NCBI GenBank assembly: GCA_965215595.1
Contig: CBDCDW010000006.1
Location: 138,129 to 202,128 of the forward strand
Source: an uncultured Candidatus Binatia bacterium
Lineage (GTDB): Bacteria > Desulfobacterota > Binatia > UBA9968 > CAXXLF01
Direction: 5' to 3'
DNA length: 64,000 nucleotides
This document shows, piece by piece, positions 2,459 through 63,576 of this stretch. How positions within the stretch are numbered: position 1 is the first letter of the stretch; each line of letters begins with the position of its first letter. The notes beneath the pieces were generated by a model that did no database searches, had not been told where the DNA came from, and saw only the letters and a program-made list of their open reading frames with translations. The translations under genes were made by a program, and so were the position numbers.

Positions 2459-3478
2459 TCATTTGGGCCGCTTGAGCATTGCGCGAATCTGCTTGAGGAC
2501 TTCAGGAGAGGCCTGAGTCAGCTTCCTGATGGTCTTCTCCACCTGCTCACCGTCATTCGGGACCACCGATAGGCCCGTTCTCTTGGCATCCGCGAGGAAC
2601 TTCGGGTCCTTCAATGTTTGCGCAAAGCCGCGCCGCAGAATTTTGACACGCTCCTGGGGTACCCCCGGTGGCGCCGTCCAGGCCCTGGGTGTTCTAAAGG
2701 GAACCACTGCCACTTCAACCAACTTCCTGGTGTTATCGTCTTTGATCAATTCCCAAATCGTGGGGACCTTAGGCAGCGCTTTATGCCGCTTATCTGAAAT
2801 GATACCTAAAATATGAAAGCCCTGGTCCAACCATTCTCGCCGCCGGGCCAAAACCGTTGAATAGGTCGAAGACCTTCCATCCACTTCCTTCCGTTCCACC
2901 GCCAGGTCGATTTCCGGGGGCGAGTAACCGAAAACATAATCGAATTTGACGCCTAGGGATTTTTCAAAGATACGGGCTTGCATGAAGATGGCATGCCTCG
3001 AGGACGGTACGCCCAGCTTGGGTGGCCGGTTGGCCTTGCGAATTGCTTCTACGCTTGAATACGGCGAATCCACATGAAAGATCAGTATTGAGTTAGGATC
3101 GGCAAAGGTCCCCAGCCAGATAAAATCTTCCACCTTATACTTGACCCCCCGCGTTCCGAGTATCTTGTGGAACGCCACCAGAGTACCATTCAACCCAATG
3201 GTCAAGCCGTCAGGTTTTGCCACGTTATAGAGATAGTTTGCTAAATTGATTCCCCCAGCACCCGGTATCGGCTGAACGATGATGGCGGGATTTCCTGGAA
3301 TATGACGACTGAGGTGACGTCCCACCGTTCGCGCTTCAATGTCAGTTAACGCACCTGGGGGCGATGGAGTCAAAACACGTAACGCCTTACCGCTATAGAA
3401 CGACTGTGCCAGACCCGTGATGGGGATAAGCCAAATGCACACAGAAAGGCAAAGCCACCGGAATATCCTTCCAAACAT
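2459..3478 (-). CDS. tctC: Tripartite tricarboxylate transporter substrate-binding protein, TctC/Bug family
   Basis: 339 aa, signal peptide, Bug-family-like periplasmic binding protein. Lies between tctB-like and tctA genes. Confidence 0.7.
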   Translation of the reverse strand: MFGRIFRWLCLSVCIWLIPITGLAQSFYSGKALRVLTPSPPGALTDIEARTVGRHLSRHIPGNPAIIVQPIPGAGGINLANYLYNVAKPDGLTIGLNGTLVAFHKILGTRGVKYKVEDFIWLGTFADPNSILIFHVDSPYSSVEAIRKANRPPKLGVPSSRHAIFMQARIFEKSLGVKFDYVFGYSPPEIDLAVERKEVDGRSSTYSTVLARRREWLDQGFHILGIISDKRHKALPKVPTIWELIKDDNTRKLVEVAVVPFRTPRAWTAPPGVPQERVKILRRGFAQTLKDPKFLADAKRTGLSVVPNDGEQVEKTIRKLTQASPEVLKQIRAMLKRPK

Positions 3479-45622: not shown

Positions 45623-47026
45623 TCAATCGATCCTGAGGGCCTTGATCAACCTCATGAGGTGGGTTCTGTGAAGACCTAGGACCTTTGCTGCGGCGGCACG
45701 ATTTCCATTGGCTGCTTTAAGGGCTTCGAGAATGTAATCCCGTCTGGCAGTGTCTATGGCCTCATGATAGGATATGCCGCCGGGAGCAACCTTTGGTGGA
45801 GGAGCTCCGAATCTGGCGGGCAGATCCTTTAGAGTGATTTTCTGACCCTGCCCCAACACCACCGCCCGCTCCATTACATTGGCGAGCTCCCTAACATTGC
45901 CAGGCCAGTCGTAGGCCAGTAGCTTTTCCTGAGCTTCCTTGGTCATTTCAGTCAAGTTTTTCTTGGTCTCGCGTGAAAAACGCTGCAAGAAGAAGTGAGC
46001 CAGATCGGCGATATCGTCTCTTCTCTCTCTCAATGACGGCAAATTGATGGAGATGACATTGAGGCGATGGTAGAGATCCTCACGGAATCCACCAGTTTTA
46101 ACAGCCTCTTCGAGATTCCGATTTGTGGCAGCAACAATCCGTGCATTGATTCGTATGGGCTTGGTTCCGCCCACCCGCTCGAACTCTTTTTCTTGCAGAA
46201 ACCTGAGTAGCTTGGTTTGGAGTTCGGGGGTAATATCCCCAATTTCATCTAGGAATACCGTCCCTCCTAGAGCTAATTCGATCTTTCCCTTTTTAAGCTG
46301 ATGGGCCCCGGTAAAGGCGCCTTTTTCATGGCCAAAGAGTTCACTCTCAATCAGCTCTTTGGAAAGCCCCACGCAGTTAATTGCAATGAATGGTTCGGAC
46401 TTACTCTCGCTCCAATTGTGTATGGCACGGGCAAAAATTTCCTTGCCTGTACCGCTTTCCCCCAAGAGTAGAATTGTGGCTTGACTACTCGCCGCCTTCT
46501 TGGCCAGATCGATTGCCTGATTCATCACCGGGCTCTTTCCCGCCACAAGGCGATAGCGGTTTCCCACCTCCTCCGAGAGGATTTCCATCCCCCGCTTGAG
46601 CCTTTCCCGCTCAAGGACCTTTTGCACCGTCAGGGCCAGATGGTCCGGCTCAAAAGGTTTTGGGACAAAGTCATAAGCCCCTACTTTCATGGCCTCCACA
46701 GCCCGCTCAATGGTTCCGTGGGCCGTCACAATCACCACCGGAACATGATTCTCCCTCCTCTTGAGCTCTTTGAGAACTTCAAGTCCGTTCATATCCGGCA
46801 TCATGTAGTCCAGCAGGATGAGTTCCGGACGAAACGACTCAGCTTTTTGGAGAGCTTCCAAGCCGTTGTTAGCCCGCTCAATGGTATAGCCTAAGTCCGT
46901 AAGCTCCTGCTCTAAAAGGTCCAGGTTAAATAGCTCATCGTCAACGATCAAAATTTTATTAGACATACTAGCTTTGATTTTTGATTTTGGATTATTATCG
47001 GAAAAAAGTCTTCGCGCCAAGGCCAT
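45623..47026 (-). CDS. Sigma-54-dependent response regulator (NtrC/Fis family)
   Basis: 467 aa. REC domain (DDELFNLDLL...LLDYMMPDMNG), sigma-54 AAA+ domain (GESGTGKE; GAFTGA; ESELFGHEKGAFTGA), C-terminal Fis-type HTH. Confidence 0.85.
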   Translation of the reverse strand: MALARRLFSDNNPKSKIKASMSNKILIVDDELFNLDLLEQELTDLGYTIERANNGLEALQKAESFRPELILLDYMMPDMNGLEVLKELKRRENHVPVVIVTAHGTIERAVEAMKVGAYDFVPKPFEPDHLALTVQKVLERERLKRGMEILSEEVGNRYRLVAGKSPVMNQAIDLAKKAASSQATILLLGESGTGKEIFARAIHNWSESKSEPFIAINCVGLSKELIESELFGHEKGAFTGAHQLKKGKIELALGGTVFLDEIGDITPELQTKLLRFLQEKEFERVGGTKPIRINARIVAATNRNLEEAVKTGGFREDLYHRLNVISINLPSLRERRDDIADLAHFFLQRFSRETKKNLTEMTKEAQEKLLAYDWPGNVRELANVMERAVVLGQGQKITLKDLPARFGAPPPKVAPGGISYHEAIDTARRDYILEALKAANGNRAAAAKVLGLHRTHLMRLIKALRID

Positions 47027-47362
47027 TAAGAAATATTAACCGCAGATTTCCGCCGATCATCGCAGATTAAAAATGGCAAAGAGCAGAGCGCCAAGCGTCC
47101 TGATGGATTCGGGACCACTGACTACCGACTACTGACAGTTGACCCGGATCGAAGGATTGACGACCGGGAGTCTGTAGTCCGTTGTCAGTAGTCAGTTGTC
47201 TCTTTATGCTTCTCGCTCTGTCCTCAGTACTTGTTACTCAGTACTGAGTCCGCTTCGCTCTATGCCTTCTGCCCATTGCTTCCTCTTGTCCGTAGTCCTG
47301 TTGTCAGTCGTCCTGTAGTCGTTTTTCGCTTTGCGCTCTGCGCTTTGCTGCCCTCTGCTTCC

Positions 47363-48448
47363 TTATTTGAGCTCCACGATGTTAAACGCGGCCACGGGGC
47401 GGACAAACCCCTTTAAATGCAGTTCTTCGAGGGGCTCGGCCACTACGGAATCTTCTATCTTGCTGAGGGTCCGCTGGTTCGTGAGGATTTGACCTCCTTT
47501 GGCCTCCCCGCAGAGACGGGCGGCGAGGTTGGTTACGTTGCCCACTGCCCCATAGTCCATGCGGCCCTCGAAACCGATATTTCCCAGAGTCGCGTAGGCC
47601 GCGGTTACGCCAACCCCCAGATCAAGGTCGTAACCTTTTTTAACCCACTCCGTGCGAAGCTCCTGTACCTTGTCACGCATTTCAATGGACATGCGCACTG
47701 CCTTTTCAGTGTGGTCCTCGCAGGGTATGGGATCATTGAAGAAGACCATAATCCCATCTCCGGCAAATCGCTCCAGGGTTCCCTCATATTTAAAGATTAG
47801 ATTGCCCATTTCTGCGTGGTAACTCTTTAGCAACTCCATGACCTCCTCAGGCTCGGCGCTATCAGAGAAGGCGGTAAAACCACGTAGGTCCAGGAAAACG
47901 ACAGTGATCTCACGCCGATGGCTCTTGAAGAGACTATCGTCCTCGCTTTTGAGGATGGTCTCGGCTATTTGCGGGGCCAGGTAACGCTTGAGACGGTTCA
48001 TGTGTTCAATCTCATCTAACTGCTGGGCAACTTTATCAGACAAGGTCCGATTCCATTCCTCTAAAGAGTCATGCATCTCTTTGAGACGCATCATGGTCCG
48101 CACCCGGGCTAAAAGCTCGACGGTCTCAAAAGGCTTCACGACGTAATCATCCGCCCCGGCGTCTAGACCCTTGGCCTTGTCTTCCTGGGACCCCTTGGCG
48201 GTTAAGAGGATCACCGGTAGGGTCTTGAATTTTTCATCCTGTCTTAACAGTTTCAGCACCTCGATGCCGTTCATCTTGGGCATCATGTAATCGAGAAGGA
48301 CAACATCGGGGAGGAACGACTCAACCTTTTGGAGCGCCTCCTCGCCGTCGCTGGCCCTTTCGATGGTGTAATCTTCCTCGATCAACTCCTGGTCCAGCAG
48401 ATCCAGGTTAAACGGGTCATCATCCACAATTAATACTTTTTTTGCCAT
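47363..48448 (-). CDS. Response regulator receiver fused to a class III adenylate/guanylate cyclase domain
   Basis: 361 aa. REC domain (VLIVDDDPFNLDLL...LLDYMMPKMNG), coiled-coil linker, CYCc domain (VVFLDLRGFTAFS...FAGDGIMVFF). Confidence 0.8.
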   Translation of the reverse strand: MAKKVLIVDDDPFNLDLLDQELIEEDYTIERASDGEEALQKVESFLPDVVLLDYMMPKMNGIEVLKLLRQDEKFKTLPVILLTAKGSQEDKAKGLDAGADDYVVKPFETVELLARVRTMMRLKEMHDSLEEWNRTLSDKVAQQLDEIEHMNRLKRYLAPQIAETILKSEDDSLFKSHRREITVVFLDLRGFTAFSDSAEPEEVMELLKSYHAEMGNLIFKYEGTLERFAGDGIMVFFNDPIPCEDHTEKAVRMSIEMRDKVQELRTEWVKKGYDLDLGVGVTAAYATLGNIGFEGRMDYGAVGNVTNLAARLCGEAKGGQILTNQRTLSKIEDSVVAEPLEELHLKGFVRPVAAFNIVELK

Positions 48449-54159: not shown

Positions 54160-55167
54160 CTAATTTAAGCCGGACAATCCGACAAAACTCCCCGCATTTT
54201 GTTCCGCCAACAAACGCATCAAGTGTGCGAAGCGAGTTCTGTTCGCCCTGCCCAGGTCGCTAAGGAAAAGAACCGGAAATCCAAATGTATGGATGCGTAC
54301 CTTTGGATTGCCTGATGCGTCCTTTTTGTTGATTCGGGCGACTTCTCTGAGTACTTGATCTGTGCTGCCGCTGGAAAAATCGTCGCCGAAGACATAGAGG
54401 CTGATGCGTTTATCCTTATTAAAAAACCGTTTCACCGCAAACAACACCCCTTCCACGGGACTGCTATTGCTGAAGCTTTGCCAGGTTCTGAACCGGGTGA
54501 TGACGGCTTTACGGCGGGCCGGGGTATCGGGGATCCAGCGTCCCGCATACGTACTATACATATATTCTCCCATGTCATTGATCACCTGAATCCCCTTCAC
54601 CTTGGGGTGAACCGCCAGCACCTCCTCAACCTTTTTCACAACCAGGGGCCATGCGGCTCTCAGCATACTGCCTGACGTATCAACAATAAAAATGATGTAT
54701 TCACTATCGACGGGTATACCCCCGATGGTTATGTCTTTGTCCGGTGGTTTGTAGGTTGGCTGCGCAATGAGGCGTTTCATTTCGTCACTCAGGGTCTGGC
54801 GCACGGCTTGAAGTTCCCTCTCGATCCGTGTCTGCTCATTGGCTTGACTCTGGGCCGCCGCGCTACGATCCCTGGCAACGGACCATTGCTCGCTCAGCGC
54901 CGCGAGGCGATTTTGTATCTTTCTTAGTTTCTTTTTTTTCTCAGCGAGCTTACGGGTTAGGTCCTGCCCCTCGCCCACCACCTTTTCCCTATCACCTTTG
55001 ATTTGCGCAATCTTGTCGATCAAATCCACCAAAATTCGTTGGACAGTCTTAGGTTCACTGGCCAGAGCGATAATTAGCAAAAGAATGATGGCGCCAAATC
55101 CGCATGAGATGGCATCGAGAAACGACAGGTTAAAAACTTCTACGTTGCGGCGTCGGCTTTTCGTCAC
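54160..55167 (-). CDS. Fusion of an ExbD/TolR-like transmembrane anchor, a coiled coil and a von Willebrand A domain (paralog 2)
   Basis: 335 aa. N-terminal NVEVFNLSFLDAISCGFGAIILLLIIAL, with the conserved membrane Asp in ExbD/TolR-like position. ~100-aa K/E/Q/R-rich coiled coil. VWA with MIDAS IIFIVDTSGSM; also LYVFGDDFSSG. Confidence 0.7.
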   Translation of the reverse strand: MTKSRRRNVEVFNLSFLDAISCGFGAIILLLIIALASEPKTVQRILVDLIDKIAQIKGDREKVVGEGQDLTRKLAEKKKKLRKIQNRLAALSEQWSVARDRSAAAQSQANEQTRIERELQAVRQTLSDEMKRLIAQPTYKPPDKDITIGGIPVDSEYIIFIVDTSGSMLRAAWPLVVKKVEEVLAVHPKVKGIQVINDMGEYMYSTYAGRWIPDTPARRKAVITRFRTWQSFSNSSPVEGVLFAVKRFFNKDKRISLYVFGDDFSSGSTDQVLREVARINKKDASGNPKVRIHTFGFPVLFLSDLGRANRTRFAHLMRLLAEQNAGSFVGLSGLN

Positions 55168-56255
55168 GGCCAGTTCCTTGACGGTGTGATAAACGAACCG
55201 CCTGTTGCGATGGCCAATCTCCAGAACGCTTCGGCAGCGGTAGGGTCGCCCTCGAGCGGAAAAAGCAGTGTGTTGATGGGAATCCCCCTTGGCAATCTAG
55301 CGGTGGCAGATTCAAATAATTTCAGTCGATCTTTTGCCGAAATGGTATTGGCCCTTGTGGCCCGAGAGCCCTGGGTGGGGAGCCCGTCGGTTAGGAGAAT
55401 GATACTATCCGGCTTGGGTTTGAGCCTGCTAGCAACCGCGAATGCCTGGTGCAAGCTGGTGCCCTTTTCCGGTGCTATTTGTCTGACCGAGGCAATTGCG
55501 TCGTTCAACCGATGGGCCTCGCTGCTGGATAACCACCGTCCTTCAGTGTCTGCGATGACCGGATGGGCCTCCGTATTGAATTGGTAGACTTGGAATTTCT
55601 TGTTGCTTTGTAGATTTGCCACCAGCCAGTGCAGCGAACGGACAACGCGACGCCATTTAGGAGCCTGTCGACGCGATTCGGCGTTCATGAGTTTGCGGCG
55701 CACGATATTGACAATGATCTCGTCCAGCATGCTCGCCGATGCATCGAGCAATATCAACGTGCGATCGCCGCCAAGTTTCAAGCCGGTCAGGTATTGTCTT
55801 CGGCCATCGCCCGTGTAACCGATGATACGCCCGCTCGGCTTCGCAGTTATCGTCTCCCTTGATTCGAGGAGCTTTTTGGCGCTTTCGAGGGCTTCTTTTT
55901 GCCTCTCGATTGCCTCAATGGCACGCTCCTGTTCACGGGCCGATTTCGTAGCCTCTTCGGTCTGTCCCTGTGTTTCGCGGATTTTTGCCAGGAGTTGCCT
56001 GGCCTGTCCTTCTAATTCTCCTTCTCTGATCTCGGTCTTCGTGACTTCATTCTGCAGATTTGCTAGGTGCTCGCGGGCAAAATCGTACAACGCGGTCACG
56101 CGATTCAGCTCGCCCTGGAGGTCTTCCTTTTTTTCTTCCCGTTTTTCCAGGACCTGCCCATTGAGTATCATGACGAGCAAAACGACTGCGCCAAAGCCAC
56201 AGAACATGATATCCAAAAAAGCCAGGCTGAAGGGTGTGCTTTCGCGTTTTTTCAT
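55164..56255 (-). CDS. Fusion of an ExbD/TolR-like transmembrane anchor, a coiled coil and a von Willebrand A domain (paralog 1)
   Basis: 363 aa. N-terminal STPFSLAFLDIMFCGFGAVVLLVMIL; coiled coil; VWA with MIDAS LILLDASASM and SIILLTDGLPTQG. 4-nt overlap with paralog 2. Confidence 0.7.
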   Translation of the reverse strand: MKKRESTPFSLAFLDIMFCGFGAVVLLVMILNGQVLEKREEKKEDLQGELNRVTALYDFAREHLANLQNEVTKTEIREGELEGQARQLLAKIRETQGQTEEATKSAREQERAIEAIERQKEALESAKKLLESRETITAKPSGRIIGYTGDGRRQYLTGLKLGGDRTLILLDASASMLDEIIVNIVRRKLMNAESRRQAPKWRRVVRSLHWLVANLQSNKKFQVYQFNTEAHPVIADTEGRWLSSSEAHRLNDAIASVRQIAPEKGTSLHQAFAVASRLKPKPDSIILLTDGLPTQGSRATRANTISAKDRLKLFESATARLPRGIPINTLLFPLEGDPTAAEAFWRLAIATGGSFITPSRNWP

Positions 56256-56277: not shown

Positions 56278-57078
56278 TTAAGCCTTGAGTCGATTTATAA
56301 ACAGGTTGTCGCAATACCGTTCAGTGCCAAGCACTAATCGCTCTTGCATCAGTTGAATCTGATGGATGATAAACATCAATACGATGCTGATCAGCAATGC
56401 GATCAAGGTGGAGTTGAATGCCACACCGAGACTCTGGGTCACGCCCGTAATATCGCCGCTGACCGCTTGATGGGCCTGCCCCAGTGCATTACCGATGCCA
56501 CGCACCGTGCCGATGAATCCAATGGAGGGTATTGCCCAGGCTATATAGCGTATAATCGAGAGTTCCGATTCGGAACGCTCTGCTTCCGATTCACACATGT
56601 CATGGACCACCATTGAAGCGTCCTGAATGCTTTGGGTCGTGGCAAAGCGGTCACTCGCACTGAGCAAAATGCTCAGCAAAATGTACTCCTGCATATTGAT
56701 GGGGACTTCCTCCCGGATCCTCTTTGATATGCCACGCGCCGTTTCAACGCTAATGTTGGCGTTTTTCGGCAAACCGATAAAATCCCACTCAAGTTGGCGC
56801 TGCTGGCGTAACGCAACCCACCCCTTGAAGGTCAGTATCGCCAAAGCCCAGAACATTAGTACAAAACAAGCCTCTTGCTCATAATCACGGATCACAACGT
56901 AGTAGGAACGCTCTGGCACAAAATTAGGATCGATTTTCATTTGCGCATGTTGCTCGGCCAGAAATGCGTCGGCGTTCGGCCGAACCACGGCAACGTAGTA
57001 CGCATGTATGACGATGAACGCTATCAAAAGCGCAAATACTTGGATGACCAGTTCGGTTGGAAAGTACTTTTTCATCAT
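56278..57078 (-). CDS. MotA/TolQ/ExbB-family proton-channel protein
   Basis: 266 aa. Three transmembrane helices; C-terminal signature IAWAIPSIGFIGTVRGIGNALGQ...GDITGVTQSLGVAFNSTLIALLISIVLMFIIHQ, compare TolQ/ExbB LGLLGTVxGM...GIxEALxTT. Confidence 0.75.
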   Translation of the reverse strand: MMKKYFPTELVIQVFALLIAFIVIHAYYVAVVRPNADAFLAEQHAQMKIDPNFVPERSYYVVIRDYEQEACFVLMFWALAILTFKGWVALRQQRQLEWDFIGLPKNANISVETARGISKRIREEVPINMQEYILLSILLSASDRFATTQSIQDASMVVHDMCESEAERSESELSIIRYIAWAIPSIGFIGTVRGIGNALGQAHQAVSGDITGVTQSLGVAFNSTLIALLISIVLMFIIHQIQLMQERLVLGTERYCDNLFINRLKA

Positions 57079-57084
57079 GTGACC

Positions 57085-57342
57085 TCAAATGTCCGTCGGA
57101 AATGAAACCGCTTTGTCGGCAGACACTTTTTCACTGGGAACGAATGTTAAAGGCGGGGGTGTTTTCTGGCGTTTACTCTCATCCGCCGTGGGGGGCCGGA
57201 TACCCGAAGGTTCAGAAGTTGTCTTATTGGATTCGGACGCCGCGAGGGCGTATCCGATGACCACCATCGAAATCAGCAACACCCCTAAACAGTATATAAT
57301 CAAGCGTGTATTACTTCGGCGATTCCGTGGCATAACGTGCAA
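57085..57342 (-). CDS. Possible small membrane protein, one transmembrane helix plus a Pro-rich tail. Weak call.
   Basis: 85 aa. LIIYCLGVLLISMVVIGYALAA, then PSGIRPPTADESKRQKTPPPLTFVP. Sits in the 230-nt gap between the MotA-like and FHA-PEGA genes, overlapping the latter by 32 nt. Confidence 0.3.
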   Translation of the reverse strand: MHVMPRNRRSNTRLIIYCLGVLLISMVVIGYALAASESNKTTSEPSGIRPPTADESKRQKTPPPLTFVPSEKVSADKAVSFPTDI

Positions 57343-59758
57343 TCCTGAAACCGATGTCGTTGCGAGGTTTCAACGTATAGTCCCGGTAGGACAACCGCAA
57401 CTGCGTAATGCCCCCGTGGCGCCAGCTAGCCCCTCGGACCCCATGAAGGTCCCCCGTTTTTGGGCCCATGGGATCGCGGAGCACCTGTTTGATGCCGCCC
57501 GTATATACATAGTAGTAGTCATGAATCCATTCTGCGACATTACCGCCTAAATCAAACAACCCGGCTTTGTTGGGTGGAAATTGACCCACCGGCGCCGCGA
57601 ATAAATACCCGTCCGAGTATCCTTTAATGATCACCGGCAATCGACCCGAGGCCGTGTCGTCGGCGTAGTTGCCGCTCCTATTGGGCGGTGGCATTTTAGC
57701 GCCCCATGGATACTTCAACGGCTTGTCGGTAGAGCGATGCCCCCCTTCATATCGCGCTGCGAACACCCATTCGGCTTCCGTAGGCAGACGATACCCGGCT
57801 GTCATGGGCTCCACAGCCACCATCTTTCCGTTCTGCTCACGATAGGCAGGCCGAAAACCGTCCTGTTTGCCGAGCCAATTCATATATCGTGCGGCATCGT
57901 CCCAGTGCACCGATACAACGGGTTGATCGGGCTGGTTCAAACTAACGCCCTTTCTGGTTCCCGAATCATGTTGCTTCCTGAATCTGTGAAACTCCTTATT
58001 CGTCACTTCCTTTTCGCTTATAAAAAACGAGCGAGTAAGCTCCACCACGTATTGTGTTTCATTGGAGCGTCGGCCCGCCTCCCGGCGCGAGGCGCCTAGT
58101 CGGAATTGGGTTGGTTTACTTATCTGAATTTGGAGTAACACTTGACCCGCCGCCGTCTTTGGTTCGTTGGCCATAACCTTCGATTTGGCACTACGAATCT
58201 TCTCGAGGCGAACATCAAGGCTCTTTGAAATTCCCTGTCGAGGAGTGACGTTCACTGAGTGGGTCTCATATCCGGGTTTGGTGATTTCCAACCGATGCGG
58301 CGCAGTGCTTAGCCGTAATCGCTGCGATGCGGATCCCGCATCTTTGCCATCCACTTTGAGCCTTGCGCCGGCAGGTCGGGTATTGAGAAATACAATACCG
58401 TGCTCAGCCGTTAACTCAATTTCGAGAGAATTTGGCTTGTCACCATCGAGTCTAACCGTCCGAGACACGGTCTTAAATCCTGGCTTATCAACCGTTAATT
58501 TGTGGTCCTGGCCTGACTTGAGGGTAAGGGTGATGGGTGAAGGCCCGCGGAGTTCCCCATTCACCGTAACGGCTGCACCCGACGGGGAAGTGGCAAGCTT
58601 TAGAACGCCGTCAACCTTCTCGAGTTGGAACAACGGTAGCTTAACCGTCTCATTTGCCTTGACCCTTACATCACTGGAGAGGGGTTTCCAGCCGTTCTTG
58701 CGAAGTTCTATACGATGGTTGCCGTTCATGGGCTCCACCCTGAGGGGCGTTACACCAACTCCGGTTCCATTTAGCAGCACTTCCGCCCCGCTGGGCTCGC
58801 TGGCAATTTCCAGGGTGCCCCACCCGGGCATGAGGGTGACCTCTTTGGTTTGACTGTCCCCTTTCCCACGAACCTCAATTGTCTCCTTGAAGGGGAGATA
58901 ACGATCCGCCTCCACGCGGAGTTCGCGCCGGCCAGCTTCGACTTCCAAAGATTTTAACGGTGTGAGCCCCGCCTCCTTACCATCGATGAATACAGCAGCA
59001 GACGTAACCGGGTGGGACACCACGTCAAGAAATCCGGGCAATTCGATTAATTTAAAACTGAGCACCAATTCCGATCCGAACTCGACATCAATGAGTTGTT
59101 CGAATTTACGATAACCTGACTTTTCCGCCTCAACCACATACCTTCCTGGCAAGGCCAAATACCGTCCAACAAACGGTACGGTGGGCCAAAAACCGCTAAG
59201 GGACACCGAGTCCGGCTTCGGAGTTACAGTCACCCGCACGGGAGCAGCCGCGATGACGAACACAACCCCACCCAATAGCAATGCAAACAACGCGAAGAGC
59301 ACTTTCAAACCCCGGTTACTTCGTTCACGAACGTGACCGATGGGTCTTACCGGAGTGATATTCGGTTCAGCCGAGGTTCCTTTGCCTGTCCCTTCCATCG
59401 CAGAAACGGCTAGGTTACCCGTTTGATGGGTACTCTCCGCTTCAACCGGCGACAGCACCAATGTTCCGGCCGTGCGCGCAACTCGGATCACCTGCCGGCC
59501 AATTTCGATTGTGTCGCCTGCAGCAAGCCACGCCGATTCTTCGAGCCTGCTGCCGTTCAACTGAACGGATTTAGACCCGGCTACGGGTTGTAGAAAAATT
59601 TTTCCCTCTTTATCCCCAAGCCATGCCACCACTATTGATTCCGCGAGGGTGCCAAACAGCAGGGATTCATCGTGGGATACACCAATGGCCAAAGGAAGGT
59701 CTGGCTCTGAAAGATCTTGCATCCCCTCAAAACCATTGATCCGTAAAATTGCGGTCAA
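57311..59758 (-). CDS. Multidomain envelope protein: cytoplasmic FHA-like domain, transmembrane helix, 4x PEGA domains, and a C-terminal FGE-sulfatase (SUMF1/GldJ-K-like) domain
   Basis: 815 aa. FHA-like N-terminus (LAIGVS...VQLNGSRL...GDTIEIG); TM VLFALFALLLGGVVFVIAAAPV; PEGA repeats (SEPSGAEVLLNGTGVGVTPL; ATSPSGAAVTVNGELRGPSP; NTRPAGARLKVDGKDAGSAS); FGE domain (GYRLPTEAEWVFAARYEGG...FDLGGNVAEWIHD...RGASWRHG...GFRIARY). Confidence 0.7.
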   Translation of the reverse strand: MTAILRINGFEGMQDLSEPDLPLAIGVSHDESLLFGTLAESIVVAWLGDKEGKIFLQPVAGSKSVQLNGSRLEESAWLAAGDTIEIGRQVIRVARTAGTLVLSPVEAESTHQTGNLAVSAMEGTGKGTSAEPNITPVRPIGHVRERSNRGLKVLFALFALLLGGVVFVIAAAPVRVTVTPKPDSVSLSGFWPTVPFVGRYLALPGRYVVEAEKSGYRKFEQLIDVEFGSELVLSFKLIELPGFLDVVSHPVTSAAVFIDGKEAGLTPLKSLEVEAGRRELRVEADRYLPFKETIEVRGKGDSQTKEVTLMPGWGTLEIASEPSGAEVLLNGTGVGVTPLRVEPMNGNHRIELRKNGWKPLSSDVRVKANETVKLPLFQLEKVDGVLKLATSPSGAAVTVNGELRGPSPITLTLKSGQDHKLTVDKPGFKTVSRTVRLDGDKPNSLEIELTAEHGIVFLNTRPAGARLKVDGKDAGSASQRLRLSTAPHRLEITKPGYETHSVNVTPRQGISKSLDVRLEKIRSAKSKVMANEPKTAAGQVLLQIQISKPTQFRLGASRREAGRRSNETQYVVELTRSFFISEKEVTNKEFHRFRKQHDSGTRKGVSLNQPDQPVVSVHWDDAARYMNWLGKQDGFRPAYREQNGKMVAVEPMTAGYRLPTEAEWVFAARYEGGHRSTDKPLKYPWGAKMPPPNRSGNYADDTASGRLPVIIKGYSDGYLFAAPVGQFPPNKAGLFDLGGNVAEWIHDYYYVYTGGIKQVLRDPMGPKTGDLHGVRGASWRHGGITQLRLSYRDYTLKPRNDIGFRIARYATESPK

Positions 59759-61278
59759 ATTTTTTCCTCACAGCGAACGATGATGACCGTTTCTTCACTC
59801 GATACAGGCACGCGGAAACGAACACGGACATCACGATAACCGGTACGGGAGCCCACTACTGTATATTCCCCGGGCCGCAGCATCATGCGACGCTCGCTAA
59901 AACGGCCAAAGCGTCCTATTCGGTATAGTGTAACGTCAGTCAGTTTATCAGAGCGGAGGACAACGGGGCGGGGCGTGCTAAAGTCATCCACGAGGGTACC
60001 CAGGCGCTCAAGCTTTGCACGTAGGTTCGCACCGAGGTTCGACATTCCACTGGACATTAACAGTAACTTTCCTGCTTGCGCCAATGGATCGGGCGACTGC
60101 AAGCGCTCCGGATTTGTCAGGAAAAAATCAACCTGCCGGTCTAGCCGAACATATTTTTCCGCCCGGGTTTTGCCTCGCATGGCAAAAGTCGCATTCTGAT
60201 CGATGCCCAATGCTTGGTCGTAGGCCTTGAGAGCCTGCTCCCAACGTTTACCTTCCTCATGCTGCGCGGCACTCCTGCGTATCTCTTCCAGTGCGGAAAT
60301 TTGCTTCGCTTTCCGCAATTTTCGACCGAGGCTTTGAACTTCGGGAGCGTTAGGGCGAAAGCTGGCCGCCTGATCCAGAGATTGCTGCGATTGCTCAAAT
60401 TCTTTTCGTTCCAATGCCGCCGATGCGGAGGATATGGCGCTTTTGTATTTCCGCTTGACAATTAACTCGTCGATCCGCCGCAGGCGATCACGGGCGGGTT
60501 GATAGTCCCCGTCGAGGGCAATTGCCGCGGCATACTCTTTCTTCGCCTGGACTAGATCCCCTTTCGATTCAAAGGCATGCCCTTGCTGAACTCGTTCAAT
60601 GACTTGTTTGAGATTACGCGCCCTGTTTAAACCGTGGTTTGCGGCCACATTCCCCGGATCAAGGGAGAGAGCCATTTCAAACTGGGTTTGTGCCGCCTGG
60701 TCATCGATTTGCTCGAGGGACTTCGTCCCTTTTCGCATTGCATTTTGCAGCCGATCCGGTTGGCTGGTTTCGAGCTGGTTAAACAGTGACAAGGTCTCGC
60801 TATAGCTCTTCCCGGCTAGCTCAAAACGCCCGGCATCAAGATGCGCATTCCCATCGGCAACTTTCGCCAAGGCGGCCGGGTAACTCGTTGCCATTTTTTC
60901 TTTACCCCAAATCTTGACGCCGTTGTTTTCAAGCCGTGCCTGATGTTCCAGGACTCCGCGCAGCAGATTTTTCGCCTTCATTTTCGCGTGGGCTTGAAGC
61001 TCAGAAGTTTTCGTCGATTTGGAAATCGGCGTTTCGGGTCTGGGTGTCTCCGTTTTGGCCGGAGTCGTATTGGATGGCCGGCCGACCAGTCTGGGCAAGA
61101 TCACGACCACTCCTATGGCTCCCACAGTGACAACCGCAAATACGAGGAACAACAATACATTTGAGCGTTTGTACCCGGCCTCCTGTGAAATAGAAGGCGG
61201 CACCGAGGGTGAGGTAAGATCTGGTTTGGCCTTCGCTGGCGGTGGCGTGAGCACCGGTCTGCGTGGCTTCTGTTCCAC
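59755..61278 (-). CDS. Membrane-anchored TPR-repeat protein
   Basis: 507 aa. Pro-rich N-terminus; TM LLFLVFAVVTVGAIGVVVIL; multiple TPR-like helical repeats (AY..ALxxDPxN-type); basic C-terminal beta-rich tail. Confidence 0.6.
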   Translation of the reverse strand: MEQKPRRPVLTPPPAKAKPDLTSPSVPPSISQEAGYKRSNVLLFLVFAVVTVGAIGVVVILPRLVGRPSNTTPAKTETPRPETPISKSTKTSELQAHAKMKAKNLLRGVLEHQARLENNGVKIWGKEKMATSYPAALAKVADGNAHLDAGRFELAGKSYSETLSLFNQLETSQPDRLQNAMRKGTKSLEQIDDQAAQTQFEMALSLDPGNVAANHGLNRARNLKQVIERVQQGHAFESKGDLVQAKKEYAAAIALDGDYQPARDRLRRIDELIVKRKYKSAISSASAALERKEFEQSQQSLDQAASFRPNAPEVQSLGRKLRKAKQISALEEIRRSAAQHEEGKRWEQALKAYDQALGIDQNATFAMRGKTRAEKYVRLDRQVDFFLTNPERLQSPDPLAQAGKLLLMSSGMSNLGANLRAKLERLGTLVDDFSTPRPVVLRSDKLTDVTLYRIGRFGRFSERRMMLRPGEYTVVGSRTGYRDVRVRFRVPVSSEETVIIVRCEEKI

Positions 61279-61297: not shown

Positions 61298-62677
61298 CTA
61301 AAGCTGTTCCATTTCCATCCCGTTCTCATTTGGAACAACGGGAATGGAATCGGTAGACCCGTTCTCGATTGAATCGATGGGTTGTACTTCTGTGGGGACG
61401 GAAGGTCTTAGTGTACCAACCTCCCGTTCATGAATGTCTTTTAGAATTCCACGCCACTGTTCAAATTTCGCTTCGGCAGAACCCCTCAGTTCCACCGTTT
61501 CACCCTCGATTTGAACCACAGTGACTTTAAGGTCTTCCGACAGAGAGTCACCAAGTTCCTCCAGTGCCGCTTTGTGGATCTCCATATCCTGTTTGGCTTT
61601 GGACGACGCCTCAATAGCCATACTGACGCTGACAGCGGTGGCCGTTCCCGCGATGACACCGCCAACAGCCGCACCAGACTTTCCGCCGGCGACAGCAATG
61701 CCCACCCCCACAAGGGTCCCCAAGACTCCCAATGCGACAGCACGGCCCAACTTTTTATTCCGCTTTTTTTCCAGATCACGTACGGCATTCATCTCATTGA
61801 GGCGGGCGCTGCGCCACTGGGTATACTCAGCACTCATTTCCCGGGATAGCCTTTCGTATTGCAGGTCCAGGGTGTCAACCAGTGCTTCCTCACGGACGCG
61901 AATGCGCCTAATTCGCTTCAACATGGAATCATCATCTGCCGGTAGCCGCGCAACCCTGAAAATTGGACTGGTCTCAGATGGTGCAGAATTCCTTGACCAG
62001 AAGGAATTGGATTCCTGCTTCAGTACCCCGTTAACCAAGTAGCCCTTGAACGCATCCGGTGCGAACTCTTCGGCGAACCTCAGTTCTGCAACCTGACGAA
62101 TCGACTCGACTTCCTTGGACGCCATCTTCACGCGATGCTGTGCCAGATCGTTGGCGATTCGGTTGTATAAATATTGAAAGGGTTCTGTGTTGTTTTCCAA
62201 CCGGTCGTAGACTTTAAGATCCACGACTTCTTCATACTCTTTTTCAAACCATAACAACCCGGTGGCGTCATGGACACTGATTTCAAGCTTCAATATCTCA
62301 CCATCGGATTCCAGGATCCGGCCGGTGATGATCACCTCACCGCCGGTAACCGCCGTGGAAACAACCCGTACGGGCCCCCAATAGCCCGACTGTTGCATGG
62401 CGTTTCTTAACTGGACCGCTGAGTAATACCCTTCCGCCTTCCGGATTTCCTTGGATATGCCACGTGACTCATCCTCCTCTTTCGAGATCTCTCCCGGCTC
62501 AAATGGCTTGATTCGGACCCCCAAGAGCTCAGCTTCAACGATTTCCAATTTCGGCTGAGCAAGTACGACCTTTTCGTAGCTCACGTCTCGTTTTGCGAAG
62601 GTAGACGCACATCCACCCAGGAAACAAATTCCGATAATGGCTCCGAGCCAAACTCGTATTTGAGACCCAAGTATCAT
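61298..62677 (-). CDS. Predicted lipoprotein with a C-terminal Gly/Ala-rich glycine-zipper segment
   Basis: The likely start MILGSQIRVWLGAIIGICFLGGC has lipobox LGGC. Central coiled-coil region. ALGVLGTLVGVGIAVAGGKSGAAVGGVIAGTATAV glycine zipper. Acidic C-terminus. Confidence 0.5.
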   Translation of the reverse strand: MILGSQIRVWLGAIIGICFLGGCASTFAKRDVSYEKVVLAQPKLEIVEAELLGVRIKPFEPGEISKEEDESRGISKEIRKAEGYYSAVQLRNAMQQSGYWGPVRVVSTAVTGGEVIITGRILESDGEILKLEISVHDATGLLWFEKEYEEVVDLKVYDRLENNTEPFQYLYNRIANDLAQHRVKMASKEVESIRQVAELRFAEEFAPDAFKGYLVNGVLKQESNSFWSRNSAPSETSPIFRVARLPADDDSMLKRIRRIRVREEALVDTLDLQYERLSREMSAEYTQWRSARLNEMNAVRDLEKKRNKKLGRAVALGVLGTLVGVGIAVAGGKSGAAVGGVIAGTATAVSVSMAIEASSKAKQDMEIHKAALEELGDSLSEDLKVTVVQIEGETVELRGSAEAKFEQWRGILKDIHEREVGTLRPSVPTEVQPIDSIENGSTDSIPVVPNENGMEMEQL

Positions 62678-63576
62678 CTTTTTGAAGTCTTGTACTTTCG
62701 ATATTCGTCCCACAGCTTTTCTTTCATCACCGGGTCCTGTTCCTTTTCCGCGGCCTCCCGCAACTGACGGGCAACGACATCGTCGTCGTTGCCACCCCCT
62801 ACAACTCTACCCCGAGGACTGGTTTTGACTTGTTTTTCTACTCCAGGAGCCGCACCCGCCTCTGCCATACGCGGCTTGGAGTCCGTGCCTTTTTCTTTAG
62901 ACGAAGATCCATCAGATTGGGTTTTCGCACCACCTGGATCTGATTGAATATTTCTGTCATCACCCTTTTCTTTTGTGCGCTGCGGACTTCCTTCTGATTT
63001 TTTGCTTGCTACTATTTCCTGAAGCTTCTCTTGTTTTTCTTGTTGCCAGAGATCAAATTCGTTCAGTGACTTGGTAAGCGGGTCTTCTATCGAGGCCAAC
63101 TTCTCCTTGTCAGTCTGCGCAGTCGTGGGAGTTTGCGGCGAACCCTGTCCTGAGGGAGGCTTCTCTTCGGGCAAGCGGCACTTAAATCCCAGTCTGTCCG
63201 GATCACCACCAAAGGTTCGATACTTTTGACAAGCCTCCAACATCTTGCGATGAAGGGAAGCGACGAATTCGGCGAATTCCACAACCGCAGGATCGTTTTC
63301 AGTCTCTGTCTTAACCCGCCGGAGCTCCCGAAACTCGGCTTCATTCTGGCGCCATTCCACATCGCTGGCGTGTAACTCGGCCAAAGCTTCAGCCAGCTGG
63401 CGCTTGGCATCCAAGTCGACCTGGGTCGTAGCCCAAGCCGTAGTCCCGATCAATAGACCGAATAGCATTAAGGCGGGAACATAACTTATATTCCCTCTTT
63501 TTGAACCGCTTCGTAGGTTGTGCCTACGACTCCATGGTTTCACCCTAAATTTGGTGTGCATTCGATCTCCAAACAT
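62674..63576 (-). CDS. Secreted or membrane-anchored low-complexity protein, first gene of the operon
   Basis: 300 aa. N-terminal hydrophobic segment VPALMLFGLLIGTTAWA, then a charged coiled-coil-prone, K/E/Q/S-rich low-complexity sequence. Confidence 0.4.
   Translation of the reverse strand: MFGDRMHTKFRVKPWSRRHNLRSGSKRGNISYVPALMLFGLLIGTTAWATTQVDLDAKRQLAEALAELHASDVEWRQNEAEFRELRRVKTETENDPAVVEFAEFVASLHRKMLEACQKYRTFGGDPDRLGFKCRLPEEKPPSGQGSPQTPTTAQTDKEKLASIEDPLTKSLNEFDLWQQEKQEKLQEIVASKKSEGSPQRTKEKGDDRNIQSDPGGAKTQSDGSSSKEKGTDSKPRMAEAGAAPGVEKQVKTSPRGRVVGGGNDDDVVARQLREAAEKEQDPVMKEKLWDEYRKYKTSKR

Follow-up and report, generated by a model that had tools for sequence, protein, structure and literature searches.

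A PEGA-repeat protein with FHA-like and FGE-fold domains is an invariable neighbour of a TolQ-like/vWA-pair motor

What role does a single polypeptide that joins an FHA-like domain, PEGA repeats and an FGE-sulfatase domain play beside the gene for a MotA-like motor subunit? The question is raised by one open reading frame (ORF), here called the target, in a 64,000-nt stretch of DNA (the window) from an uncultured Candidatus Binatia bacterium (GenBank assembly GCA_965215595.1, contig CBDCDW010000006.1, positions 138,129 to 202,128). Proton-driven 5:2 motors (MotAB, ExbBD, TolQR, GldLM/PorLM, Zorya) are few in kind and drive widely differing processes in the envelope, and the force-receiving partner defines the biology of each. 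We find that the target is a component of the recently proposed system built from a TolQ-like protein and a pair of vWA proteins, and that its genomic linkage to this motor, to a tetratricopeptide-repeat (TPR) protein and to a lipoprotein is obligate. It is probably a non-catalytic, single-pass inner-membrane stalk or docking subunit of an eight-gene envelope machine around the TolQ/MotA-like protein and the vWA pair, and phospho-signalling is best read as a lineage-specific add-on to the motor system.

The TolQ-like/vWA-pair motor was recognised only in 2025, and a candidate partner family can now be named for it, the FHA-like/PEGA/FGE-fold proteins that invariably adjoin it in the loci examined. 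Among marine Gammaproteobacteria this family is common, and it is accompanied by the TPR protein, the lipoprotein and two unknown proteins, with a kinase and a canonical FHA domain added in some lineages. From the comparison come a list of the machine's parts, a loop that is a candidate for docking, and hosts that can be cultured, Microbulbifer yueqingensis and Sneathiella sp. HT1-7.

Linkage to the motor and domain architecture

Synteny was compared in one genome per GTDB species (14 loci with orthologues) and in five metagenomic lineages found through homologues of the last vWA gene, and 20 distinct loci were examined. The hosts of the 14 loci are Gammaproteobacteria (Lysobacterales, Luminiphilus, Porticoccaceae, SAR92, OM182, Arenicella, Pseudohongiellaceae and Pseudomonadales metagenome-assembled genomes (MAGs)), Alphaproteobacteria (Sneathiella) and one 'delta proteobacterium' MAG. 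The target of the window is the fourth of eight co-directional genes separated by overlaps or short gaps, in the order unknown protein, lipoprotein, TPR protein, target, small ORF, MotA/TolQ-like protein, vWA protein, vWA protein. The small ORF aside, this order is kept in every locus as far as the contigs reach, and the five metagenomic lineages have the same eight genes. The target lies directly upstream of the MotA/TolQ-like gene in all 20 loci, the one broken adjacency being a secondary insertion in the locus L008; the initial annotation had suggested from this position that the target is the partner of the motor, and the adjacency strongly supports it. The two vWA proteins are kept as a pair in all complete loci. 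From one locus to the next the genes on either side have nothing in common, so the cluster behaves like a module in its own right. The motor loci in the sample are rather closely related, with vWA identities of 35% or more, and all vWA homologues sampled are at least 56% identical.

A recent paper (PMC12204202, Mol Biol Evol 2025) describes a TolQ-like gene in tight linkage with two heterologous 'trans-pore-helix' (TPH) vWA proteins, a pair proposed to replace TolR/ExbD inside the pentamer; for a 5:2 complex with the Asp helices within the pentamer, it reports AlphaFold 3 models only. The three motor genes downstream of the target match this description, being a MotA/TolQ/ExbB gene without TolR, ExbD or MotB and two Asp-helix vWA paralogues in a proteobacterial host. 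No family match to TolR, ExbD or MotB was found among the eight cluster proteins, and Pfam vWA matches the 363-aa protein and, weakly, the 335-aa protein. The published account differs from the cluster described here in its partners: the paper and its supplement make no mention of an FGE, PEGA or FHA partner, of the two upstream unknown proteins or of kinase/FHA variants, and note a TPR gene only for the other vWA family that they treat. In the literature that we searched, no description was found of this partner, of the eight-gene cluster or of the kinase/FHA variants.

The target is one intact ORF of 815 codons with exactly the coordinates first noted (Table 1). It starts at a TTG that overlaps the upstream TPR gene's TGA stop (tTTGAcc; context …ATTTGACC…) and has GAGGA about 7 nt to its 5′ side, the usual sign of translational coupling; the N-terminus, MTA(I/T)L, is common to target and homologues. 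An exhaustive search with the target returned 1,513 cluster representatives (50% clustering) at E≤1e-30; the best 150 all have E<1e-124, and for the majority of these the alignment spans most of the sequence. Many relatives are full-length, at about 800 aa. A frameshift or fusion artefact, the possibility that two genes had been joined or split by a sequencing error, was rejected, as a public assembly encodes an identical protein (P0001) on a contig of 4.0 Mb and hundreds of full-length relatives have the same architecture. We also rejected a small family, suggested by the 74 matches of a word-indexed search, as a retrieval limit. A scan for promoters and terminators gave signals at chance level.

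The full-length AlphaFold2 model (mean predicted local distance difference test score (pLDDT) 81) is made up of an FHA domain, a disordered linker, a transmembrane helix, five beta-sandwiches and an FGE domain (Table 1). Basic residues precede the helix, and PEGA and FGE-fold modules are usually extracytoplasmic, so the protein is probably oriented with its N-terminus in and its C-terminus out. Both periplasmic families claimed for it are present. PEGA (PF08308) matches with E 7.4e-55 and 183 bits against a cut-off of 20.8, in four stretches of the full protein and five when the periplasmic part is searched alone, and FGE-sulfatase (PF03781) matches aa 551-808 with E 1.6e-36; the target is a genuine PEGA-repeat and FGE-superfamily protein. 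The count of four PEGA domains in the initial annotation needs raising to five, since the model has five beta-sandwich modules (aa 172-236, 242-308, 315-373, 384-448 and 453-517).

The FGE-like domain has lost the residues by which an FGE works. FGEs of the PDB match the target at E ~2.5e-17, and their alignments stop at 'GASW', just before the catalytic Cys region. There is no cysteine among the 815 residues of the target. In our alignment, the two copper-binding catalytic cysteines of human FGE, C336 and C341, which we take to stand in the motif GGSYMCHRSYCYRYR, correspond to H781 and Q786, and the equivalent columns in 147 representatives hold H/D/S/Q and E/D/Q/A, never Cys. The sulfatase signature PS00523 is found in none of the window's ORFs, and Pfam finds no sulfatase in the cluster. 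An active FGE was therefore rejected: with no Cys in the protein, nor at the two catalytic positions in 147 relatives, the target is not a formylglycine-generating enzyme. Judged by its residues, the domain is a well-folded FGE/C-type-lectin module unable to do FGE chemistry, in agreement with the earlier proposal that it acts as a structural binder and not in sulfatase maturation.

Like FGE/SUMF1, the target has the fold and the conserved residues of the Ca2+ sites. N697, D716, D/N736, N740 and E743 are ~100% conserved and align with FGE Ca2+-site residues, which we presume, from the human FGE structure, to form two structural Ca2+ sites. Unlike FGE/SUMF1, it has His/Gln at the catalytic positions and no Cys, no sulfatase nearby, and a membrane anchor with a PEGA stalk. 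The database label 'formylglycine-generating enzyme required for sulfatase activity', which the family carries alongside 'PEGA domain-containing protein', is wrong or misleading for this family and needs correcting.

A further loop is peculiar to the family. S-R558-R559-E560-x-G-R563-R564-x-N566-E567 is near-invariant (124-146 of the 147 representatives) and is not in true FGEs at the aligned position, and we regard it as a candidate ligand- or partner-contact site. Foldseek places the FGE-like domain nearest to PvdO (TM-score 0.73), followed by the diversity-generating retroelement (DGR) variable protein TvpA and FGEs (0.6-0.7), with PorK lower (~0.35). A role as a DGR target was rejected, given the high conservation of the C-terminal FGE region and the gene tables of the examined loci, in which we noticed no reverse transcriptase.

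The N-terminal domain and kinases in related operons

The N-terminal domain had been called FHA-like and was thought to imply recruitment by a phospho-Thr partner. The fold was confirmed and the implication was not. Pfam FHA (PF00498) by itself falls short of its cut-off, with 15.4 bits where 20.7 are needed (E 0.026), and covers profile positions 29-67 only, the C-terminal half. A profile of 24 family N-termini matches FHA domains of the PDB, with Ki-67 at E 5.6e-4 and further matches to Rv1747 FHA-2, SLMAP, EmbR, GarA and EssC. The AlphaFold2 model of aa 1-109 has a pLDDT of 90.2, and all of its top 50 Foldseek matches in the PDB are FHA domains, the best being Rv1747 FHA-2 (E 6.9e-4, TM-score ~0.5). 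Because family profile and model both match only FHA domains, the fold is real.

The residues that bind phosphothreonine (pThr) were checked in 28 family members aligned to Rv1747 FHA-2 and Ki-67, and then in about 85 further representatives. Structural residues are retained (G26, N68-G69 and G81-D82), and P22, Q57 and S75 are invariant in a family-specific way. The position of the pThr-binding Arg, after the conserved Gly, is G/V/L/T, and its commonest residues do not include Arg; the SxxH Ser is retained in just 6 of the 28, and the His position of that motif is V/A/I/L; and the Ser/Asn/Thr loop (SxNGT) is variable or has V/L at the Thr position. The pThr-contacting positions are likewise not conserved in the ~85 further representatives. 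The N-terminal domain is an FHA fold that lost its canonical phospho-Thr pocket, and since it fails both the profile test and the pThr-residue test, the target is not a canonical FHA reader. Of the 150 top representatives, 86 have the domain; the ~40% of the family without it form a class of about 690 aa that starts just before the transmembrane helix. A hidden Markov model of the domain finds it in L003, L004, L008 and all metagenomic loci scanned (L083-L087).

That no Ser/Thr kinase or PP2C lies in the window held within the limits of the probes. No HRD or PP2C motif occurs in the window's ORFs, and tblastn of the window with PknB and PstP probes and with kinase domains from orthologous operons gave nothing better than E 0.03 over ~20-50 residues; the PknB probe is validated by its matches in L004 and L008, the PstP probe has no positive control, and the search covered 64 kb of a genome of ~4 Mb. 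Kinase and PP2C are absent from 17 of the 20 loci as well as from the window. The PknB probe matched inside three orthologous operons. In L004 (7743-10004) the TPR protein, 753 aa long, carries an N-terminal Pkinase (Pfam E 3e-26) that keeps HRDLKPAN and DFG; in L008 (7149-9488) the 779-aa TPR protein likewise has an N-terminal Pkinase (Pfam E 7e-38); and in L012 (7391-9706) the N-terminus of the TPR protein is degenerate and pseudokinase-like (31.9 bits), with HGF in place of HRD. The N-terminus of the window's TPR protein is just a Pro/Thr/Ser-rich cytoplasmic tail of ~40 aa.

A second difference between operons lies downstream of the target. An extra gene for a cytoplasmic protein of ~410-480 aa, here x413, stands between the MotA-like gene and the first vWA gene in 10 of 14 loci (L006:13056-14297, L004:13596-14957 and L008:17467-18879, plus L005, L007, L009-L012 and L016) and not in the window. 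Its N-terminal ~330 aa have no Pfam or PDB family match. Only in L004 (E 2e-11) and L008 (E 7e-10), the operons with an intact-looking kinase, does x413 end in a genuine Pfam FHA domain, which has canonical SRxH and SRYGT..NG motifs. With kinase and canonical FHA together in these two operons, part of the system's diversity has a Ser/Thr-kinase/FHA control layer, in which the reader is most plausibly the separate canonical FHA protein. The window has a version of the system without kinase and without canonical FHA protein, features that it lost or never had.

The plan of the cytoplasmic end has parallels elsewhere. We liken it to YscD/PrgH/EscD of type III and EssC of type VII secretion, which presumably share an FHA-like domain without pThr residues, one transmembrane helix and, in the periplasm, beta-rich repeats. 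One family member (P0050) has a precomputed match to PF16697 (Yop-YscD_cpl), and EssC and YukB are among the profile and fold matches of the FHA-like domain. Unlike those proteins, the target has PEGA and FGE modules in the periplasm, not ring-building motifs, and no secretion genes nearby, so the likeness is architectural. PEGA repeats are also shared with membrane Ser/Thr kinases that have periplasmic PEGA (matches P0062-P0073), and a proteobacterial kinase family is known that has FGE-sulfatase as its C-terminal partner (bioRxiv 10.1101/2025.01.12.632604). Unlike in those kinases, the cytoplasmic module of the target is a degenerate FHA domain, and where the system has a kinase, it is the TPR protein that carries it as a fusion.

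In the window (~61240-61265), L086 and L088, operons whose target has the FHA-like domain, the TPR protein bears a KPxLTPPP motif in its cytoplasmic tail. The motif is not in all such operons, and it may be a binding or phosphorylation site.

A probable stalk and docking subunit, and its alternatives

The proposed machine would be driven by the TolQ/MotA-like proton channel, with two Asp-helix/coiled-coil/vWA proteins, a heterologous pair, standing in for TolR/ExbD/MotB; the transmembrane helix would anchor the target beside this engine. Taking Ig-like modules at ~3.5-4 nm each, the five PEGA modules would make a rigid periplasmic stalk of ~17-20 nm; the vWA coiled coils, of ~100-120 residues at 0.15 nm per residue, should have a comparable reach, which would put both heads at a similar height near the peptidoglycan or the outer membrane. 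There the C-terminal FGE-fold, lectin-like head would be presented as a docking or ligand-binding hub; its partner may be the heads of the vWA proteins, the lipoprotein or TPR protein of the cluster, or a glycan of the envelope. The SRRExGRRxNE loop is a candidate contact, and we speculate that its invariant Glu could ligate the metal-ion-dependent adhesion site (MIDAS) of a vWA domain. The cytoplasmic FHA-like domain would most likely be a phospho-independent adaptor, or a relic of the kinase/FHA input that is intact in some operons.

A scaffold or docking role is argued from precedent in type IX secretion (T9SS), where the FGE fold of PorK/GldK, without the two catalytic Cys, is a non-enzymatic periplasmic docking hub for the ring engaged by PorLM (PMC12421860). 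The target shares with PorK/GldK/GldJ a Cys-less FGE fold beside a proton-driven 5:2-type motor (PorLM/GldLM there). PorK differs: a lipoprotein of the outer membrane in Bacteroidota, it has insertion domains and builds rings together with PorN, whereas the target has an inner-membrane anchor, no lipobox, five PEGA modules with an FHA-like domain and no PorN/GldN nearby, and belongs to Proteobacteria; no family matches to GldL, GldM or GldN were found among its neighbour genes. GldK/PorK (TIGR03525) is the best NCBIfam match of the target (E 6e-27), at 94.9 bits against a cut-off of 350 and over the C-terminal half of the model only. Failing on score, anchor, partners and taxon, the target is not GldK/PorK. 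If the docking role is true, it would be a second, independent reuse of the FGE fold as a motor-coupled structural hub.

Several observations weigh against a non-catalytic docking subunit with phospho-signalling as an add-on. Co-operonic conservation is no proof of contact. The likeness to PorK/GldK is weak, both in score and in fold, where PorK ranks below FGE and PvdO. Loss of the Cys pair rules out FGE chemistry but not all catalysis, and the best fold match, PvdO, carries the NCBIfam name dehydrogenase. The kinase-bearing operons L004 and L008 also have a degenerate FHA domain on the target orthologue, and the invariant P22, Q57 and S75 lie near loops that bind ligand in canonical FHA domains, so a non-canonical phospho-dependent mode is possible. 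For the vWA families themselves, PMC12204202 states that no deletion phenotypes are on record for a related vWA force-transducer family and gives none for the TPH-vWA pair.

A bolder form of the same idea makes the cluster a counterpart of T9SS PorLM-PorKN that arose independently. The target would form a cage around a heterodimeric coiled-coil/vWA rotor turned by a TolQ-like pentamer; its FGE heads would dock the vWA MIDAS (through E560 and E567) or an outer-membrane lipoprotein and pass force to the outer envelope; the TPR-fused kinase and FHA protein would gate the machine in some lineages; and the degenerate FHA domain would be a docking remnant. We offer this arrangement tentatively, as a picture that is unlikely to be right in full.

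Somewhat less likely still is that the target is an independent peptidoglycan- or glycan-binding envelope protein, co-transcribed with the motor and making no contact with it, for example a spacer or a sensor of envelope state. PEGA is treated as a peptidoglycan-associating module (PMC7159879), and FGE/C-type-lectin folds bind varied ligands, as in DGR variable proteins. Such independence fits poorly with a gene order and adjacency that stay strict in Alpha-, Gamma- and 'delta'-proteobacterial lineages whose flanks are unrelated, and with the start/stop overlap with the TPR gene; both favour a stoichiometric complex, though neither proves contact.

An improbable alternative is that the N-terminal domain is a working phospho-Thr reader, with a kinase elsewhere in the genome phosphorylating a partner such as the TPR tail or a MotA-like loop and so recruiting or gating the target. 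The reality of the FHA fold, the KPxLTPPP motif in the TPR tail of the window, L086 and L088, and the 64 kb span of the kinase search all leave room for it, as do L004 and L008, in which an intact-looking Pkinase fused to the TPR protein accompanies the N-terminal domain on the target. Even in those operons, however, the Arg, the SxxH Ser and His and the Ser/Asn/Thr loop are not conserved, and the separate canonical FHA protein is the more obvious reader; the lack of the domain from ~40% of the family and of kinase and PP2C from the window and 17 of the 20 loci tells against it as well.

We give a lower probability to the FGE-like domain being a different enzyme, with PvdO-like oxidase or EgtB-like chemistry, that modifies a periplasmic substrate, possibly a product of the cluster. 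PvdO is its best fold match, many of its residues are invariant, and the NCBIfam PvdO, SenA and EgtB models are significant as domain matches, but their scores fall far under the cut-offs (58 against 500, 43 against 420 and 23 against 360). The domain moreover has no Cys, is joined by no DinB/His-triad domain as EgtB/OvoA need, has no sulfatase nearby, and its conserved residues fall on the structural Ca2+ sites and on motifs general to the FGE superfamily.

Least likely is an anti-phage or conflict system, either Zorya-like with a MotAB-type sensor or of the vWA ternary type, in which FGS domains sense invaders. The pairing of a MotA-like protein with a non-canonical partner is reminiscent of Zorya (weak ZorA matches, E 0.004-0.009), and vWA plus FGS-domain combinations occur in conflict systems (PMC7159879). 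Against this, PADLOC found nothing significant among the eight proteins (best E 0.0006-0.004, to coiled-coil or MotA segments only), and Pfam finds neither a nuclease nor an NTPase (MoxR/STAND) nor any other effector among the cluster's products. The C-terminal FGE region, moreover, is highly conserved and not hypervariable, the gene tables of the examined loci showed no reverse transcriptase, and gene content is fixed over the 20 loci.

Neighbouring genes and variation among loci

The domains of the target and the other genes of the cluster are collected in Table 1.

Table 1. Positions in the window of the target, its parts and the other genes of the cluster.
Feature	Position	Strand	Remarks
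Target, whole ORF (gene 4)	57311..59758	-	FHA-like domain, linker, transmembrane helix, five PEGA modules, FGE-like domain
Degenerate FHA-fold domain, cytoplasmic	59447..59758	-	aa 1-104
Disordered cytoplasmic linker	59309..59446	-	aa 105-150; pLDDT <50; basic end RERSNRGLK before the membrane helix
Single transmembrane helix	59249..59308	-	aa 151-170; AlphaFold2 helix and hydrophobic sequence
Five tandem PEGA-type beta-sandwich modules, probable periplasmic stalk	58208..59245	-	aa 172-517
FGE-sulfatase-fold (C-type-lectin-like) domain	57326..58141	-	aa 540-811; without the catalytic Cys pair
Family-specific loop S-R-R-E-x-G-R-R-x-N-E	58058..58090	-	aa 557-567; inside the FGE-like domain
Gene 1, first of cluster	62674..63576	-	300 aa; only the C-terminal ~35 aa conserved across loci
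Gene 2, predicted lipoprotein	61298..62713	-	471 aa; LGGC lipobox
Gene 3, TPR protein	59755..61278	-	507 aa; short cytoplasmic tail, transmembrane helix, periplasmic TPR; coupled to target
Gene 5, small ORF between target and motor gene	57085..57342	-	82-85 aa; weakly conserved, seen in several loci
Gene 6, MotA/TolQ/ExbB-family proton-channel subunit	56278..57078	-	266 aa; PF01618, E 1.1e-13
Gene 7, vWA protein	55164..56255	-	363 aa; trans-pore Asp helix FLDIMFCGFG, coiled coil, vWA with DxSxS (DASAS)
Gene 8, paralogue of gene 7, last	54160..55167	-	335 aa; trans-pore Asp helix FLDAISCGFG, coiled coil, vWA-like (DTSGS)

PDB and Pfam searches returned nothing for the 300-aa and 85-aa products. 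The conserved C-terminal motif of the 300-aa protein (~62677-62790), DDDVVARQLREAAxKExDPxxxEKLWxEYRKYK, is 52-77% identical across loci; outside it the protein is of low complexity and ranges from 200 to 550 aa. The 471-aa lipoprotein is conserved in every locus and has no Pfam, NCBIfam or PDB match. Its lipobox reads FLGGCAS, and a Gly-rich hydrophobic stretch at ~aa 325-370 resembles a glycine zipper. The last ~70 aa of the TPR protein (59755-59970; …LRPGEYTVVGSRTGYRDVRVRFRV…) look by eye like a PEGA-type beta module, which is conserved in all orthologues and has no Pfam match.

Two loci depart from the common layout at the target. In L008 (12329-16639), the only locus in which target and motor gene are not adjacent, an insertion of two ORFs on the opposite strand, 497 and 936 aa long, separates them; by eye these ORFs resemble Ppx/GppA and polyphosphate kinase. 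In L012 (9887-11942), from an OM182-clade MAG and the only locus with a split target homologue, the orthologue is divided into ORFs of 560 and 137 aa, through either a frameshift/pseudogene or an assembly error.

DDE transposase genes (L001:1-507 and 2560-3087) lie a few kb upstream of the cluster, just past the right end of the window, and a phage-integrase fragment flanks the cluster in L086 and L087; these flanks may hint at mobility of the module. Elsewhere in the window (45623-48448), and apparently unrelated to the cluster, two neighbouring ORFs on the minus strand, 467 and 361 aa long, share a nearly identical N-terminus that is response-regulator-like (ILIVDD.(L/P)FNLDLL.Q).

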